A stretch of 47,341 nt of DNA from Bacillota bacterium. GTDB lineage: Bacteria > Bacillota > Clostridia > Lachnospirales > WQUN01. Location of the stretch: NCBI GenBank assembly GCA_009778185.1, contig WRKG01000296.1, positions 1 to 47,341 on the forward strand. Reading direction: 5' to 3'. The notes below the pieces were generated by a model. That model saw only the letters and a list, made by a program, of their open reading frames with translations, ran no database searches and was not told where the DNA came from. The position numbers and the translations under genes were made by a program. Below, piece by piece: positions 5,636 through 42,789 of the stretch. Numbering within the stretch: position 1 is the stretch's first letter; each line of letters starts with the position of its first letter.

Positions 5636-6130
5636 ATGAAAATATATAAACTAAAAAAATTGAAGTTATTGCTATGTGCTTTAACAATTCCATTTATATC
5701 AGCCTGTGCAGTGCAAGCCGCCGAAGAAACAGTCGTTACACAATCAGAAGAAGTAATAGTAATAGAAGAAACAGCCGTTGCACAATCAGAAGAAGTAATA
5801 GCAATAGAAGAAACAGCCGTTGCACAATCAGAAGAAATAATAGTAATATATGATGCTGAAACACCTAGGCTTCGTACACGTGCTGAAGTTGAACGGGCTT
5901 CACGAACTGAACCGCAACGCCCTGCAACGGAAGACGAAATAGCTTGGATTGTAGAAGGCATGGAGGAAACTTTATTAGAACTGCTCGCAAACGGCGACTA
6001 CGACAGAGCCGAACTACAACAACAAATGATAGATGATATTCTTTCGGGCGTGGTACCCATAACTTTCTTTGAATCATTTGACCGTAACGAGGAGATTGAT
6101 TTTGGTAATATGATTCCGCCATTTTGGTAA
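5636..6130 (+). CDS. Hypothetical lipoprotein with three 14-aa acidic repeats
   Basis: 164 aa. Lipobox FISAC. EETAVAQSEEVIAI x3. AGGAGG RBS. Confidence 0.6.
   Translation: MKIYKLKKLKLLLCALTIPFISACAVQAAEETVVTQSEEVIVIEETAVAQSEEVIAIEETAVAQSEEIIVIYDAETPRLRTRAEVERASRTEPQRPATEDEIAWIVEGMEETLLELLANGDYDRAELQQQMIDDILSGVVPITFFESFDRNEEIDFGNMIPPFW
5723..5848 (+). repeat. 3 x 42-bp in-frame tandem repeat
   Basis: Units at 5723-5764, 5765-5806 and 5807-5848, each starting GAAGAAACAG. Confidence 0.85.
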
Positions 6131-37765: not shown

Positions 37766-37780
37766 ACGAAATTCCCCCTT

Positions 37781-37870
37781 TTGTGTTAAAATAGATATGT
37801 AAATATTATATCATGTATTTGTAAGTTTGTCATTTATTATTGTATAAAAAGGATGTTATTTGTGAAAATT
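37781..37870 (+). repeat. 90-bp perfect direct repeat, copy 1
   Basis: Base-for-base identical to 39003-39092 (period 1222 bp). Confidence 0.95.
37805..37833 (-). promoter_or_regulatory. Promoter ATGACA-17-TATAAT (copy in DR1) driving the M1-like operon
   Basis: -10 at 37805-37810 and -35 at 37828-37833 on the minus strand. Confidence 0.5.
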
Positions 37871-37946
37871 AGCAAAAATACCAATAAAAATAGGCTTGAC
37901 AATTTTTCAATATTTTTCAAATTGTCAATCCTAAAATATTTCAAAG

Positions 37947-38447
37947 CTAAAAAATATCGTTATAAAGTTTGTGCCACGGTTCGGATTTGTTTAATGTCAA
38001 CCGGTATTTTGCAAAAATTTGCTCGTATTCGTACATTTTAAGTTGCATTGCAGGCACTTGCGATGCCAACGAATGTATTAGAAAAAAATATTCTTGCAAC
38101 TCGTTTTTGCAAAGTAGCAAGGAAAAATGTTTAACGAAAGTTAATTCTAACCTAAAAAACAAGGTTTCTTCGGTTGCATTTTGCGAGATTGTTTCGTAGG
38201 CATTTTGTAAGGTTATGTCTGTCAATGTTGCTCCTAAATTGGACTTTATAAGAAAAACAGCTAATTGCAAATATTTTCGCAAAATATCGTCTTGCCAATC
38301 GTAAAAGTTTGTGTCTATTTCGGCGGTTGCTGGAATTTCTTGTAGATACAATTCGTTAAATTGTAAAATTGTGCTATCTAGCCAAGCGTGTTTGTTTGCG
38401 TAAGTCCATTTTAGCATACGAGTGTAGTTTGTTGAAAAAGTATCCAT
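37947..38447 (-). CDS. Hypothetical protein, paralog B
   Basis: 166 aa from ATG 38447 (GGGAGG RBS). Shares ELYL.E, KYLQ.A, TLQ.AY, N.T.EE and L.EYF with paralog A. Confidence 0.6.
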   Translation of the reverse strand: MDTFSTNYTRMLKWTYANKHAWLDSTILQFNELYLQEIPATAEIDTNFYDWQDDILRKYLQLAVFLIKSNLGATLTDITLQNAYETISQNATEETLFFRLELTFVKHFSLLLCKNELQEYFFLIHSLASQVPAMQLKMYEYEQIFAKYRLTLNKSEPWHKLYNDIF

Positions 38448-38449
38448 TT

Positions 38450-38977
38450 TTATTCCTCCCATTTGCCTATTTGCTCCGCTTTGGAGGATAAATTCCAACG
38501 TTCCACAAACAGAGGTTCGTATTTGGATAAATCCACTTTTGGCGAGACAATTTTGCTTATCATCGAAAAATATTCTTTCAAGGCGAAATTACTCAACAGT
38601 AAAAATGATTCCTTGATTAGCAATAATGGCAACCTAATATTTTGCAATTCTTCCTGTGTAGAGTTTGCCACAACCGAATCATACGCCGTTTGCAAAGTTA
38701 CAGCTATTGCAGTTGGCACAATCCCGCACGATTGCACAAGAAAAGCAAATTGCAAATATTTGTCAACTTTATCGGTTGTCCAAGAATTAAAGTCAACATC
38801 AATTTGCTCAATTAAATCGTCTACATAGCCAGTTTCAAATTGAAAATTTTTGTATTTTTCATATAAATATAATTCTGTTATGTTTATTATTGTTTTATCG
38901 ATAATATTTTGACTAGTTTGCGTTAAATTTAGAAGTTTGGCGTAATGACTTAAAGGTTGGTTATCCAAAATTTTCAT
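38450..38977 (-). CDS. Hypothetical protein, paralog A
   Basis: 175 aa. AAAGGAG RBS. No signal peptide or known motif. Confidence 0.6.
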   Translation of the reverse strand: MKILDNQPLSHYAKLLNLTQTSQNIIDKTIINITELYLYEKYKNFQFETGYVDDLIEQIDVDFNSWTTDKVDKYLQFAFLVQSCGIVPTAIAVTLQTAYDSVVANSTQEELQNIRLPLLLIKESFLLLSNFALKEYFSMISKIVSPKVDLSKYEPLFVERWNLSSKAEQIGKWEE

Positions 38978-39002
38978 CTCCTTTCTAATAATTTTTTCGT
39001 AA

Positions 39003-39092
39003 TTGTGTTAAAATAGATATGTAAATATTATATCATGTATTTGTAAGTTTGTCATTTATTATTGTATAAAAAGGATGTTATTTGTGAAAATT
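39003..39092 (+). repeat. 90-bp perfect direct repeat, copy 2 (contains the true murG RBS and start)
   Basis: Identical to 37781-37870. Confidence 0.95.
39027..39055 (-). promoter_or_regulatory. Promoter ATGACA-17-TATAAT (copy in DR2) driving the paralog pair
   Basis: Same sequence as 37805-37833, shifted by 1222 bp. Confidence 0.5.
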
Positions 39093-40160
39093 GTTTTAAC
39101 AGGCGGCGGAACAGCAGGACACGTTACGCCAAACATTGCTTTATTGCCAACTTTGGCAAAATTGGGCTATCAAGTAGAATATATCGGCAGCCACAACGGA
39201 ATCGAGCGCGGCTTGATAAATCTTTGTGAAATACCTTATCACAGTATATCTAGCGGAAAATTGCGCCGTTATTTTGACCTAAAAAATTTTACCGATATTT
39301 TTCGCATTATAAAAGGCTTTTTTGATGCGTTGCTAATTTTGCGAAAAATTAGACCCAACATTATTTTCAGCAAAGGCGGATTTGTGGCTGTTCCTGTTGC
39401 GTTGGCAGGGCATATTTTGAAAATTCCGATAGTTATTCACGAATCGGATATAACTCCAGGTTTGGCAACCAAAATTATTATGCCGTTTGCAAAAGTTGTG
39501 TGTGCAAGTTTTCCCGAAACGGTAAAACACACAACAAAAGGCATTTTAACAGGAAGTCCAATACGAGAAGAGTTAATTTTGGGCGACAAAACAATCGCAA
39601 TGCAGTTATGCGGGTTTGACAAGTTTGACAAAAAATCGCAAAAGCCGATTATTTTGGTCATCGGCGGCAGTTTAGGAGCAACCACAATTAACAAGCACAT
39701 CTTCGAACTTTTGCCAACTTTATTGGAAGATTTTCACGTGATTCACGTTTGCGGAAAAGGCAATATTTCTGTGGATGCTTGCCCAGGATATGCTCCTTTT
39801 GAGTACGTACAAGAGGAACTTCCGCATATTTTTGCGGCTGCCGATTTGATTATTTCGCGAGCGGGTGCAAATACCTTGTTCGAACTTTTGGCATTAAAAA
39901 AGCCGCATTTGCTTATCCCGCTAACACGAGCAGCCAGCCGCGGCGACCAAATTTTGAATGCAGAATCCTTTGAAAAGCAGGGTTTTTCCGCCGTTTTGCA
40001 AGAAGAACAACTCGAAAATTTGTATCTCGCAATTTTGGATTTGTACGAAAAAAGGGAAATGTATGTAAGCCAAATGCAAACCAAAGAAACTAGCAAAGGT
40101 ATAGATAATGTAATTGCACAAATAAAACAGTGGACAAAAGTCGGCAAAGACATTGAATAA
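39084..40160 (+). CDS. murG: Undecaprenyldiphospho-muramoylpentapeptide beta-N-acetylglucosaminyltransferase
   Basis: KIVLTGGGTAGHVTPN. GTG 39084 is preferred (AAAGGA RBS, 8-nt spacing) over ATG 39075. Confidence 0.95.
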   Translation: MKIVLTGGGTAGHVTPNIALLPTLAKLGYQVEYIGSHNGIERGLINLCEIPYHSISSGKLRRYFDLKNFTDIFRIIKGFFDALLILRKIRPNIIFSKGGFVAVPVALAGHILKIPIVIHESDITPGLATKIIMPFAKVVCASFPETVKHTTKGILTGSPIREELILGDKTIAMQLCGFDKFDKKSQKPIILVIGGSLGATTINKHIFELLPTLLEDFHVIHVCGKGNISVDACPGYAPFEYVQEELPHIFAAADLIISRAGANTLFELLALKKPHLLIPLTRAASRGDQILNAESFEKQGFSAVLQEEQLENLYLAILDLYEKREMYVSQMQTKETSKGIDNVIAQIKQWTKVGKDIE

Positions 40161-40174
40161 AGGAAGTGCTTTTC

Positions 40175-40924
40175 ATGGAAAAATCTTTTGAATTTGTTAG
40201 CAGAAACTCTGTTAAACAATCGTCAAGCAATGGTTATGCAGAAAAATTTGAACAGGATGGATTTTGGTACAAAGCCAATGTTGGTGCATTTAATTCTCAT
40301 GCAGAAGTGGTTGCTTGCAGGTTGTCAAAATATACAAATGTGAACAAATGCGTTGAATATTCTTTAATTAAGCAAAATAATGAATATTTTACTAAATCTG
40401 CCGACTTTATAAAAGGAAGACCTTTTGAAACCTTGTCAAGTTTGCATTCCAAAGTAACAGGCACTTCCATTGAATATGTGCAAAATACTTTGTTTGGGGA
40501 AAAATTGTTCACGTACGTTATAAACTTTGTTAAATCTGCCGTTAAAAAAGATGTAACTGAAGATTTAGTAAAAATATTAAAATTTGATGCTTTTGTCCTA
40601 AACGAAGATAGACATTTTAAGAATTTGGCTTTATTATTAGTCAATAATCAATGGGAAATTTTTCCAATGTACGATTTTGATTGTGCTTTATTTTCGTGTA
40701 TCGAGGATTTAGATAACTTGCCAACCGAACATAAATCGTTGCCATTTTTCTTTACACACAATGAACAGTTGCGATTCTTAAATAAAATATCTAATTTTAA
40801 GCTAATTGTTAAACCTTTTAATCCACAACAAATTATTGACAACCTTTGGGATAAAGAATATACTATAGGTAATGATGTAATTTTAGCTTATTTGGAAACT
40901 GTAAAAGGAGGTTTAACTTTATGA
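40175..40924 (+). CDS. Minimal HipA-family kinase core (no N-terminal subdomains)
   Basis: 249 aa. GYAEK, LNEDRHFKNLAL and FPMYDFD align with HipA GAQEK, ATDGHAKNFS and TPFYDI. AGGAAG RBS 8 nt before ATG 40175. Confidence 0.7.
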   Translation: MEKSFEFVSRNSVKQSSSNGYAEKFEQDGFWYKANVGAFNSHAEVVACRLSKYTNVNKCVEYSLIKQNNEYFTKSADFIKGRPFETLSSLHSKVTGTSIEYVQNTLFGEKLFTYVINFVKSAVKKDVTEDLVKILKFDAFVLNEDRHFKNLALLLVNNQWEIFPMYDFDCALFSCIEDLDNLPTEHKSLPFFFTHNEQLRFLNKISNFKLIVKPFNPQQIIDNLWDKEYTIGNDVILAYLETVKGGLTL

Positions 40925-41256
40925 TTTCAATGTTTAACTGCGAATTTAACTACTACTACATGGGAGAAAAAACTGCTCATGTCAAAATAGTCAATGGACA
41001 CGCCACTACCGAGCAGTTTTCGAAAGAATGGTACAGGTTGCCTTTTGGAATGGTTCCCGATCACAATGTCCGCCGCGAAACTATCCGCATTTTCTTCGAA
41101 GAGCATTGCATTCCCAAGCACCGCAAAGATTTGCAAAAGTTTTTGGATTACTACGGTTTAGAAAAATGGGATGCCTTCAAAATTTGCAGAATAACCAACG
41201 GCGAACACGCCCATAAATACGGCTTTATTGAATGGTTAGATAAACAACAAAATTAA
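40921..41256 (+). CDS. Small protein translationally coupled to the kinase; possibly HipA-N-terminal/HipS-like
   Basis: 111 aa. ATGA overlap and AAAGGAGG RBS. WYRLPFGMVPDHNVRRETIRIFFEEHCIPKHRKDLQKFL. Confidence 0.6.
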   Translation: MISMFNCEFNYYYMGEKTAHVKIVNGHATTEQFSKEWYRLPFGMVPDHNVRRETIRIFFEEHCIPKHRKDLQKFLDYYGLEKWDAFKICRITNGEHAHKYGFIEWLDKQQN

Positions 41257-41322
41257 CCTACCAAAAATTAACCATTTTGTCAACATCAACCGAGAGGAGG
41301 CTGGGCTTTTGCCCAAACCCGA

Positions 41323-42789
41323 ATGAAATTACCTTTAATTATGCAGGACATAGAATACGAAATACTAAAAGACTGCAACTTTAACGAAGTATCCGTTGCC
41401 GATATTGTTATTGACTCGCGTAAAGTTACGCAAAATAGCTTGTTTGTCTGCTTGCGTGGCTCGCAATCCGATGGACACGACTTTATTTTTGAGGTAGCCC
41501 AAAAAGGCGCAGCCGCCATTATAGTTGATAAATTGGAAGCCAACTATTCATCAATTCCGCAAAATTTGCCCATTATAAAAGTAAATAATGCTCGCCGTGC
41601 TTTGTGCGTTATTTCTGCCAATTTTTATAGCCGCCCTGCAAAAAAGTTGCGTCTTTTTGGCGTAACAGGCACAAACGGCAAAACTTCCGTTACTTATATG
41701 ATTGAAAATATTTTGCGGCAAATATCTAATACAGGACTTATTGGCACAATCGGCTTGCATTTTAACGGCGAGCCTGTAAATATCCCGTTTGCAACCTCTA
41801 CAACGCCCGATCCACAAGAACTTCACCAAATTTTAGATTATATCTTGCAAAATGGTGGACAAAATGTTATCATGGAAGTGTCTTCTCATGCCCTAAAATT
41901 GCACAAAGTTGACGGACTTTTTTTTGAAACCGCCATTTTTACCAACTTAACACAAGATCACCTGGATTTTCACAGGACAATGGACAATTATTTGGCTTGT
42001 AAAGTTCGCTTGTTTACTCGTGCAAAAAATGGCATAATTAACGTTGACGATAAATATTCCCAGCAAATAATCGATTTAGGCACTTGCGAAAACTGGATTA
42101 CTTACGGCATCGATAATGATTGTGATATTAAAGCCGTTGACATTAAAAATTTAGACGAAGGTTCGGCGTTTTCCATTGCAATAAACGGCACTTTAGAGCA
42201 GTTTTTTATTCCAACCAAAGGATTATTCAACATTTATAATGCTCTTGCTGCCATTGCAACTGCACTTTCGGTTGACGTAAGTTTATCTCAAATAAAAGCG
42301 GGAATTTCCTCGTTTGCTGGCGTTCCTGGACGTATTCAAATTGTGCCGAACAACAAAGGATTGCGAGTTTTAGTAGATTATGCTCACAGCCCAGACGGAT
42401 TAGTCAACATAATTAACGCTGTTCGCAACTTTACCGAGGGAAAATTGATTACTCTTTTTGGTTGCGGCGGCGAACGAGATACCGAAAAACGCCCAATTAT
42501 GGGACGTATCGCTGGCGAACTTTCCGACCATTGCATAATAACGTCTGACAATCCTCGGTCCGAATCGCCCGAAACCATAATTGCACAAATACAAGACGGC
42601 ATAAAAGAAACATCTTGCACATTCGACTCTTTTGTTGACAGAAAAACAGCTATATCTCATGGTATTTCGATAATGCAACCTGGCGATTCGCTGATTATTG
42701 CGGGCAAAGGGCATGAAAATTACCAGCTAATCGGAAAAAATACTTTTCCCTTTGACGATTTCGAAATTGCCAAAAGTATTTTAGATTAA
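41323..42789 (+). CDS. murE: UDP-N-acetylmuramoyl-L-alanyl-D-glutamate--2,6-diaminopimelate ligase
   Basis: GVTGTNGKTS. DNPR motif (ITSDNPRSE) typical of DAP-adding MurE. Confidence 0.95.
   Translation: MKLPLIMQDIEYEILKDCNFNEVSVADIVIDSRKVTQNSLFVCLRGSQSDGHDFIFEVAQKGAAAIIVDKLEANYSSIPQNLPIIKVNNARRALCVISANFYSRPAKKLRLFGVTGTNGKTSVTYMIENILRQISNTGLIGTIGLHFNGEPVNIPFATSTTPDPQELHQILDYILQNGGQNVIMEVSSHALKLHKVDGLFFETAIFTNLTQDHLDFHRTMDNYLACKVRLFTRAKNGIINVDDKYSQQIIDLGTCENWITYGIDNDCDIKAVDIKNLDEGSAFSIAINGTLEQFFIPTKGLFNIYNALAAIATALSVDVSLSQIKAGISSFAGVPGRIQIVPNNKGLRVLVDYAHSPDGLVNIINAVRNFTEGKLITLFGCGGERDTEKRPIMGRIAGELSDHCIITSDNPRSESPETIIAQIQDGIKETSCTFDSFVDRKTAISHGISIMQPGDSLIIAGKGHENYQLIGKNTFPFDDFEIAKSILD

Follow-up and report, generated by a model that had tools for sequence, protein, structure and literature searches.

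A compact HipA-type kinase and a putative HipS-like partner between murG and murE in a Bacillota genome

A contig of 47,341 nucleotides from a Bacillota bacterium (GenBank assembly GCA_009778185.1, contig WRKG01000296.1; the whole contig is referred to as the window) carries two coupled open reading frames (ORFs) that separate murG from murE, both genes of cell-wall synthesis. The first, ORF1, encodes a compact kinase core of the HipA superfamily, and the second, ORF2, a small protein from a family without a Pfam model. We consider it probable, from sequence comparison and analogy with studied Hip systems, that the two form a horizontally acquired module of a short kinase and a downstream HipS-like partner, in which ORF2 would silence ORF1 in trans. 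The original prediction, made from the sequence alone, had put the pair forward as an undescribed toxin-antitoxin (TA) or defence-like system. Its novelty does not stand, because a kinase-first order with a downstream HipS-like gene was reported by Gerdes et al. 2021 (PMC8262856) for hipJS and hipIN. This kind of module was thus already described computationally in 2021, and the pair in the window is a further, unusually compact example.

A HipA-type kinase core and its conserved gene partner

Profile searches and a predicted structure identify ORF1 as a HipA-fold kinase core with its key residues intact. Residues 101–172 match Pfam HipA_C marginally above the cut-off (E = 2.5e-7, 31.0 bits vs. 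30.5), and residues 41–175 match PDC-M03A (E = 9.7e-11), the best PADLOC family for this protein. The single NCBIfam match, to the HipA-family toxin YjjJ, is weak. We found 29 kinase homologues with 37–48% identity, mostly 250–262 aa long (word-index search, concatenated pair alignment). A PF07804 match is precomputed for many ORF1 homologues, some bear the NCBI name “HipA domain-containing protein [Oscillospiraceae bacterium]”, and PDC-M03A is matched by 25 of 26 kinase homologues (best E = 2.5e-14). Across a 26-sequence kinase alignment that includes ORF1, the residues K33, D138, N143, D145, R146, N150, D167, and D169 are invariant, while S17, S18, G20, K24, and H147 are nearly so. The key residues of ORF1 comprise a Gly-rich loop (S17-S18-N-G20-Y-A-E-K24), K33, the catalytic D145-R-H147-F-K-N150, and the Mg2+-binding D167-F-D169. 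With hhalign, ORF1 FDAFVLNEDRHFKNLA...IFPMYDFDCA pairs with HipA residues 301–336, laying LNEDRHFKN on ATDGHAKNF and FPMYDFD on TPFYDII and equating D145, H147, K149, N150, and D167 with HipA D309, H311, K313, N314, and D332, respectively. The HipA-like motifs that had been picked out by eye in ORF1 are therefore present and agree with two independent comparisons, hhalign and Pfam HipA_C.

The AlphaFold2 model of ORF1 (pLDDT 83, pTM 0.82) likewise places it in the HipA fold, as had been expected. Its best Foldseek matches in the PDB are CtkA (E = 1e-6, TMq 0.61), Legionella HipT, Shewanella and Escherichia coli HipA, and E. coli HipT, and the 36 matches at E ≤ 1e-3 (TMq 0.4–0.62) belong to the HipA family except for two CotH kinase entries. 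CtkA (Helicobacter pylori JHP0940, PDB 3AKL), the closest structural match, resembles ORF1 in being a stand-alone HipA-like kinase core, but it shares only 15% identity, is a secreted pro-inflammatory kinase, and has no HipS-like partner. ORF1 shares the catalytic D-x-H-x-K-N and Mg2+-binding Y-D motifs and the fold with HipA of E. coli K-12 HipBA, which differs in its length of 440 aa, in carrying N-subdomain 1 in cis, and in its upstream helix-turn-helix (HTH) antitoxin HipB; no hipB accompanies the 249-aa ORF1. Since its Gly-rich loop (S17-S18-x-G20-x-x-x-K24) sits at residues 17–24, ORF1 lacks the N-subdomains of HipA, in line with the earlier observation that it starts at the ATP loop and misses N-subdomain 1. 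The suggestion that it is smaller than any known kinase family holds marginally (249 aa vs. 279–321 aa), and relatives encoded on plasmids have 261–269 aa. The position of Ser17 and Ser18 beside the Gly-rich loop suggests, by analogy with HipA S150 and HipT S57/S59, a control by autophosphorylation.

An ORF2 homologue lies directly 3' of the kinase gene at every close locus read (L001, L002, L003, L004, L005/6, L007/8, and L031), with kinase-partner gene overlaps of 4 or 14 nt at L001, L003, L005, L007, and L031. Altogether, the kinase-then-partner pair recurs at seven metagenome loci, on two plasmids, and on one viral contig of 140 kb (IMG/VR). Judged by this recurrence, the pairing of ORF1 and ORF2 goes beyond chance and ORF2 is a cognate, conserved partner of the kinase. 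It would be hard to credit the pair as what is left of a HipA-like gene that a frameshift split and that is now decaying or inactive. ORF1 is indeed unusually short and of aberrant GC content, but all residues that are invariant in the 26-sequence alignment are intact, the two-gene structure, the gene sizes, and the overlap are kept at 37–55% identity over many loci, and the position of ORF2, 3' of the kinase, cannot be explained by a simple frameshift of a HipA gene.

Both plasmids with such a pair come from Bacillaceae, namely pBpOF4-02 of Alkalihalophilus pseudofirmus OF4 (L033 3001–4188, WP_012961257/WP_012961258) and a plasmid of Cytobacillus solani (L035 2956–4162). Each encodes a 261–265-aa kinase followed by a 129–135-aa ORF2 homologue, and all four proteins are annotated as “hypothetical protein”. 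The pair on pBpOF4-02 adjoins xerS and a replication initiator gene. A role of these plasmid pairs in plasmid stabilisation is possible.

The ORF2-like domain is also found fused to other domains. Lachnospira eligens ATCC 27750 encodes a 178-aa fusion of an HTH and an ORF2-like domain 5' of a 269-aa kinase (L034 2420–2956, WP_012740875), and the same arrangement, with the HTH fusion upstream, occurs on two unverified gut “phage” contigs. Besides L034, such HTH fusions are represented by P0065, P0069, L036, and L037. On two IMG/VR contigs (L048 3023–4417 and L049 2972–4402), an HTH, an ORF2-like domain, and the kinase form a single polypeptide. The HTH-fused upstream partner and this triple fusion are missing from the ten arrangements of Hip genes that Gerdes et al. 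2021 list (PMC8262856), and the triple fusion imitates the domain order of HipH. A different fusion is seen in the 506-aa protein P0031 (L030 343–1863), where an N-terminal TIR_2 domain that matches Thoeris ThsB profiles precedes an ORF1-like kinase; no ORF2-like gene is located beside it at this locus. The TIR-kinase fusion is suggestive of a defence effector or an association with defence.

The neighbourhoods of the relatives include Ku/LigD, AAA_14/DUF4143 proteins, ABC transporters, prophage-like regions, and plasmids. One region contains PARG, SocA_Panacea, DUF3310, and RadC, and another HTH/ImmA (ImmA/M78), a Y-family polymerase, and Lar. Among the loci read, none of the homologous pairs is located beside mur genes. 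The occurrence of homologous pairs in unrelated neighbourhoods fits a mobile, accessory module, and the surroundings of the relatives are of a mobile or defence-like kind.

Relation of the partner to HipS and the HipA N-domain

An exhaustive HMMER search with the ORF2 alignment returned 163 representative clusters (E ≤ 1e-3), and most of these proteins stand alone, with a length of 100–130 aa. ORF2 itself matches the PADLOC profile PDC-M03B over positions 72–122 of 232 only (E = 1.4e-3). This profile is also matched by 27 of 80 ORF2-family members (best E = 1.8e-9), always over approximately positions 59–122 of 232–250, and by sequence the matched stretch is the N-terminal, non-HIRAN half of the HipN type. 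Pfam detects no HIRAN domain in the 111 aa of ORF2, as the protein ends where the PDC-M03B match ends.

Relatives in which both domains are joined place ORF2 more directly. In P0099, P0071, and P0142 (374–402 aa), an ORF2-like domain occupies residues ~3–101, and an ORF1-like kinase core follows ~40 aa further on (local hmmsearch E = 1e-25 to 3e-14; P0071 with Pfam HipA_C). L050 and L051 also combine an ORF2-like domain and a kinase in one polypeptide in the HipA order. As read from sequence, the domain order and spacing of P0099, P0071, and P0142 are those of HipA, with the ORF2-like domain in the position of N-subdomain 1. Positionally, the original prediction of an N-domain-like partner is thus borne out.

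We compared the ORF2 family by hhalign with a HipA N-domain profile of 10 sequences (E. coli and plasmid HipAs). The alignment scores 17.2 (P = 0.021) over 51 colinear columns that join ORF2 residues 39–94 to HipA residues 44–95 around the FFxNLLP region. Column-shuffled controls have a mean of 10.6 ± 2.1, with 1 of 200 reaching the real score, and the reversed control scores 8.2. This indicates a weak in-register similarity between ORF2 and N-subdomain 1 of HipA. The low-confidence model of ORF2 shows three strands, four helices, and then a further strand, an order that we take to resemble the mixed alpha/beta N-subdomain 1.

Several results weigh against a relationship with HipS. Pfam Couple_hipA has no match in ORF2 (E < 1), in the family consensus, or in the fused N-termini, and is matched by only 2 of 80 ORF2-family members (E ~ 0.009). 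Searched against PDB sequences, the ORF2-family profile retrieves neither HipS nor HipA and gives two spurious matches only, whereas the N-domain of HipA finds HipS of Legionella pneumophila, HipS of E. coli, and HI_0666 at 1e-7 to 3e-4; the sequence of P0099 also has no PDB match. The AlphaFold2 model of ORF2, built from a three-sequence input, is poor (pLDDT 50), and Foldseek returns nothing significant for it, with a best E of 0.48 and HipA (3hzi) second at E = 0.9. The idea that ORF2 has the sequence pattern of Firmicute HipA N-domains consequently failed in the Couple_hipA and PDB sequence searches, and what it retains is the weak profile-profile similarity. Weighing these results, we regard ORF2 as probably, but not provenly, a divergent HipS-like domain.

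The same negative results would be expected if ORF2 had another fold, unrelated to HipS and N-subdomain 1, and neutralised or regulated the kinase in some other way, for example as a sensor or adaptor, with its HipA-like position reached by convergent domain shuffling. The lack of a significant Couple_hipA match, of a PDB sequence match, and of any Foldseek match at E < 0.4 speaks for this explanation, and so does the missing similarity of the ORF2-family profile to E. coli HipH. We nevertheless think it quite unlikely, as the N-terminal half of PDC-M03B, HipS-like according to Gerdes et al. (PMC8262856), is matched consistently and colinearly by the family, and the in-register hhalign alignment beats 199 of 200 shuffles. 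The comparison with E. coli HipH/YjjJ had been prompted by the triple fusions and by the YjjJ match of ORF1, and a link to HipH was rejected for lack of a match with the ORF2-family profile.

Genomic setting in the mur cluster

The closest genome found, a Defluviitaleaceae metagenome-assembled genome (WRKK01000302.1, L009), has a mur region that is colinear with the window, with identities of 74% for MurG, 78% for MurE, 67% for MurF, and 90% for MraY. In this genome, ~95 bp separate the murG stop from the murE start, without a trace of ORF1 or ORF2, so the pair is, relative to it, a lineage-specific insertion in the murG-murE-murF-mraY cluster, as had been proposed. The ORF table and the sequence (Table 1) confirm the coupled arrangement of two ORFs with an ATGA overlap and a good ribosome-binding site each, and the expected absence of an HTH partner from the two-gene module is borne out by a Pfam scan. 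A GTG at 40166 is in frame with ORF1, but its spacing to the Shine-Dalgarno sequence is poorer than that of the ATG at 40175. The ORF table lists no ORF between murG and ORF1, and the window contains no second copy of ORF1 or ORF2.

Table 1. Features of the ORF1-ORF2 locus; positions refer to the window
Feature	Position	Strand	Remarks
murG	39075–40160	+	Upstream flank; Pfam Glyco_transf_28 N and C domains; TAA stop at 40158–40160
Lineage-specific 1.16-kb segment, murG stop to murE start	40161–41322	+	95-bp spacer in the closest genome found
Shine-Dalgarno AAGGAAG of ORF1	40160–40166	+	8 nt to ATG; first base shared with the end of the murG stop codon
ORF1, compact HipA-superfamily Ser/Thr kinase core, putative toxin	40175–40924	+	ATG to TGA; 249 aa
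Shine-Dalgarno AAGGAGG of ORF2	40905–40911	+	9 nt to ATG; within the 3' end of ORF1
ATGA stop/start overlap, ORF1-ORF2 translational coupling	40921–40924	+	Seen in the sequence
ORF2, partner protein, putative HipS-like neutraliser	40921–41256	+	ATG to TAA; 111 aa; family without a Pfam model
murE	41323–42789	+	Downstream flank; Pfam Mur_ligase, Mur_ligase_M, Mur_ligase_C

The insertion had also been described as AT-rich, which is correct for ORF1 (GC 0.297, GC at third codon positions (GC3) 0.24) but not for ORF2 (GC 0.396, GC3 0.48), whose GC content equals the window mean (0.397). This asymmetry is particular to the window and absent from six homologous loci. The composition gap hints that the genes have separate histories or that the codon usage of ORF1 is under selection.

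In the murG-murE interval, we found neither a terminator-like site nor a good promoter directly 5' of ORF1, and read-through from murG into the module is plausible. Given this and the absence of an HTH component, the module is probably expressed by murG read-through. The best local promoter-like site, a sigma-70-like TTGACA-17-TATACT (11/12) at 40836–40864, lies in the 3' end of ORF1, 57 nt 5' of the ORF2 start. It was considered as an internal antitoxin promoter and dismissed: it is absent at the equivalent position of nine homologous loci and is thus probably a by-product of AT-richness.

A location within the mur transcription unit could also mean that the pair was domesticated as a cell-wall regulator, co-opted into the operon to phosphorylate Mur or division proteins. 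The missing terminator between murG and murE and the probable co-transcription would agree with such a role, and E. coli HipH/YjjJ is reported to affect cell division (PMC9948734). We rate this as highly improbable, however, as the insertion is wholly missing from the closest genome found, and homologous pairs occur in many unrelated contexts and nowhere beside mur genes.

Two further features of the region were noted. Another AT-rich segment (GC 0.31) that is specific to the window is located just 5' of murG at 37766–39060, where L009 has only ~570 bp. It carries two overlapping minus-strand ORFs (37947–38498 and 38450–38977, 183 and 175 aa) without a Pfam, PADLOC, or plasmid tblastn match, and may represent another small accessory or TA-like insertion. 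Downstream of the module, the murE ATG lies 23 nt 3' of a Shine-Dalgarno-like GAGAGGAGG, with a small hairpin, GGGC-TTTT-GCCC (41303–41314), in between (window 41292–41323). L009 has a Shine-Dalgarno-like element followed by a hairpin (GTAATGC...GCATTAC) 5' of its murE start (~5650–5702), and the two genomes may share a structured murE translation-initiation region.

Known Hip systems and possible mode of action

The closest described counterparts belong to clade XI of Gerdes, Baerentsen and Brodersen 2021 (mBio), which comprises the short core kinases HipG, HipI, HipJ, and HipM of 279–321 aa without N-subdomain 1; in hipIN, hipJS, and hipMP, a putative antitoxin gene is located downstream (PMC8262856). 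Among 1,239 modules, hipJS was found twice and hipIN 14 times, and their downstream HipS-like genes were proposed as antitoxins (PMC8262856). HipN consists of a HipS-like domain plus HIRAN, and HipS of hipJS of the HipS-like domain only (PMC8262856). Like the pair in the window, hipJS is bicistronic, with the kinase first, a core kinase that lacks N-subdomain 1 and has its Gly-rich loop near the N-terminus with a Ser beside it, and a downstream partner of ~100 aa without HIRAN or HTH. The two differ in kinase length (279–321 aa vs. 249 aa), and HipS of hipJS is reported to fall with canonical HipS and HipA-N in one branch, unlike ORF2, which matches the N-domain of the HipN type (PDC-M03B) and is not recognised by Couple_hipA. 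The organisation hipIN corresponds to PADLOC PDC-M03, in which HipA is paired with a HIRAN protein (see PMC11706625), and shares with the window the gene order, a kinase matching PDC-M03A, and a partner matching the N-terminal half of PDC-M03B. Its component B, however, combines the HipS-like domain with HIRAN (~232–262 profile positions), in contrast to the 111 aa of ORF2 without HIRAN, and the PDC-M03 matches of the window proteins are partial and weak (E = 1e-10 and 1.4e-3). By organisation and PDC-M03 profiles, the module therefore resembles hipJS in its layout and a HIRAN-less relative of hipIN/PDC-M03.

More distant parallels come from experimentally studied systems. HipBST of E. coli O127 and Legionella divides the HipA architecture, as the window does, between a core kinase and a small protein resembling the N-domain, and HipT carries serines by its Gly-rich loop as ORF1 does and matches its fold (Foldseek E ~ 3e-6). 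HipS blocks HipT by placing a Trp in its active site, and a pair of autophosphorylated serines exerts control over HipT (PMC10627512). The order hipB-hipS-hipT, with an HTH protein HipB and HipS upstream, is reversed in the window, where HipB is missing; HipS is not detectably similar to ORF2 by sequence search, and HipT is ~90 aa longer than ORF1. HipAD/DS-6, a validated anti-phage defence system, also pairs a HipA-family kinase with a non-HipB partner (PMC13092281). It consists of two genes and its defence needs the catalytic residue of the kinase, but its DUF3037/DUF1829 partner is unrelated to ORF2.

By analogy with HipS and HipT, ORF2 would bind ORF1 in trans at the site of N-subdomain 1 and keep the kinase inactive, with Ser17/18 providing an additional control of ORF1 by autophosphorylation and the module being expressed through murG read-through. 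Loss or titration of ORF2, or a stop in its resynthesis upon phage-induced shut-off or loss of the element, would set the kinase free. Free ORF1 might then phosphorylate an essential target such as a translation factor, the target of HipA and HipT being an aminoacyl-tRNA synthetase, and the resulting growth arrest could lead to abortive infection or addiction. The HTH fusions of the ORF2-like domain upstream of the kinase in relatives point to a classic antitoxin/repressor design.

Other points tell against this proposal. The junctions of the module contain no integrase, transposase, tRNA, or meaningful direct or inverted repeats, and no defence island or mobile element can be recognised around the locus. 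The toxicity, the neutralisation, and the target proposed for hipJS, hipIN, and the ORF1/ORF2 family are predictions; Table 1 of Gerdes et al. includes no experimentally analysed module for clade XI (PMC8262856), and we found no later experimental test of hipJS, hipIN, or PDC-M03 in the literature. In addition, in HipA, as in the fused relatives that reproduce its order of N-domain and kinase, the N-domain belongs to an active enzyme, so that “inhibitor” is not the sole possible role of ORF2.

This leads to the main competing explanation, in which ORF2 is a detached N-subdomain 1 that acts as an obligatory or activating subunit of a two-subunit signalling or stress kinase. Single-polypeptide relatives in the HipA order (P0099, P0071, P0142, and L050/L051) are compatible with such a split enzyme, as are the 4–14-nt overlaps and tight coupling that suggest stoichiometric co-assembly. 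We see it as a serious but unlikely contender, since in HipBST (E. coli and Legionella), which alone among split systems has been studied, the detached N-domain protein is the antitoxin (PMC10627512; PMC9325769). Moreover, the HTH-fused ORF2-like domains upstream of the kinase fit an antitoxin or autorepressor, and the TIR-kinase relative without an ORF2 gene indicates that the kinase core is not universally dependent on ORF2. The reading of ORF2 as a silencing partner in trans is thus the one we favour.

A broader version of this proposal is distinctly speculative. The ORF2-like domain, for which Pfam has no model and which forms at least 163 clusters at 50% identity, could define a large, unannotated second lineage of HipS-like regulatory modules, with ORF2, in the HTH-less, kinase-first form of the window, neutralising the kinase and also sensing infection in a minimal abortive-infection system. 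With short Hip kinases, the domain is combined in no fewer than five ways: stand-alone downstream, HTH-fused upstream, fused N-terminally to the kinase, in the triple fusion, and fused to HIRAN. As the module is located within the murG-murE transcription unit, the antitoxin supply would in this scenario depend on transcription of the host cell-wall operon, and a phage-induced transcription shut-off could release the kinase.

The partner family is widespread in Bacillota genomes, on plasmids, and on viral contigs, where it is annotated only as “hypothetical protein”; as the family lacks a Pfam model, a profile would improve the annotation of TA and defence systems. Phage defence by HipA-like kinases has already been validated, and our finding extends rather than overturns this picture. 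The pairs on plasmids of culturable Bacillaceae are candidate experimental models. If the proposed function is true, ORF1 and ORF2 (249 + 111 aa, without a DNA-binding component) would be among the smallest self-contained HipA-type kinase/neutraliser pairs and could serve as a minimal model for the control of a Hip kinase by a detached N-subdomain and for the targets of clade XI kinases.

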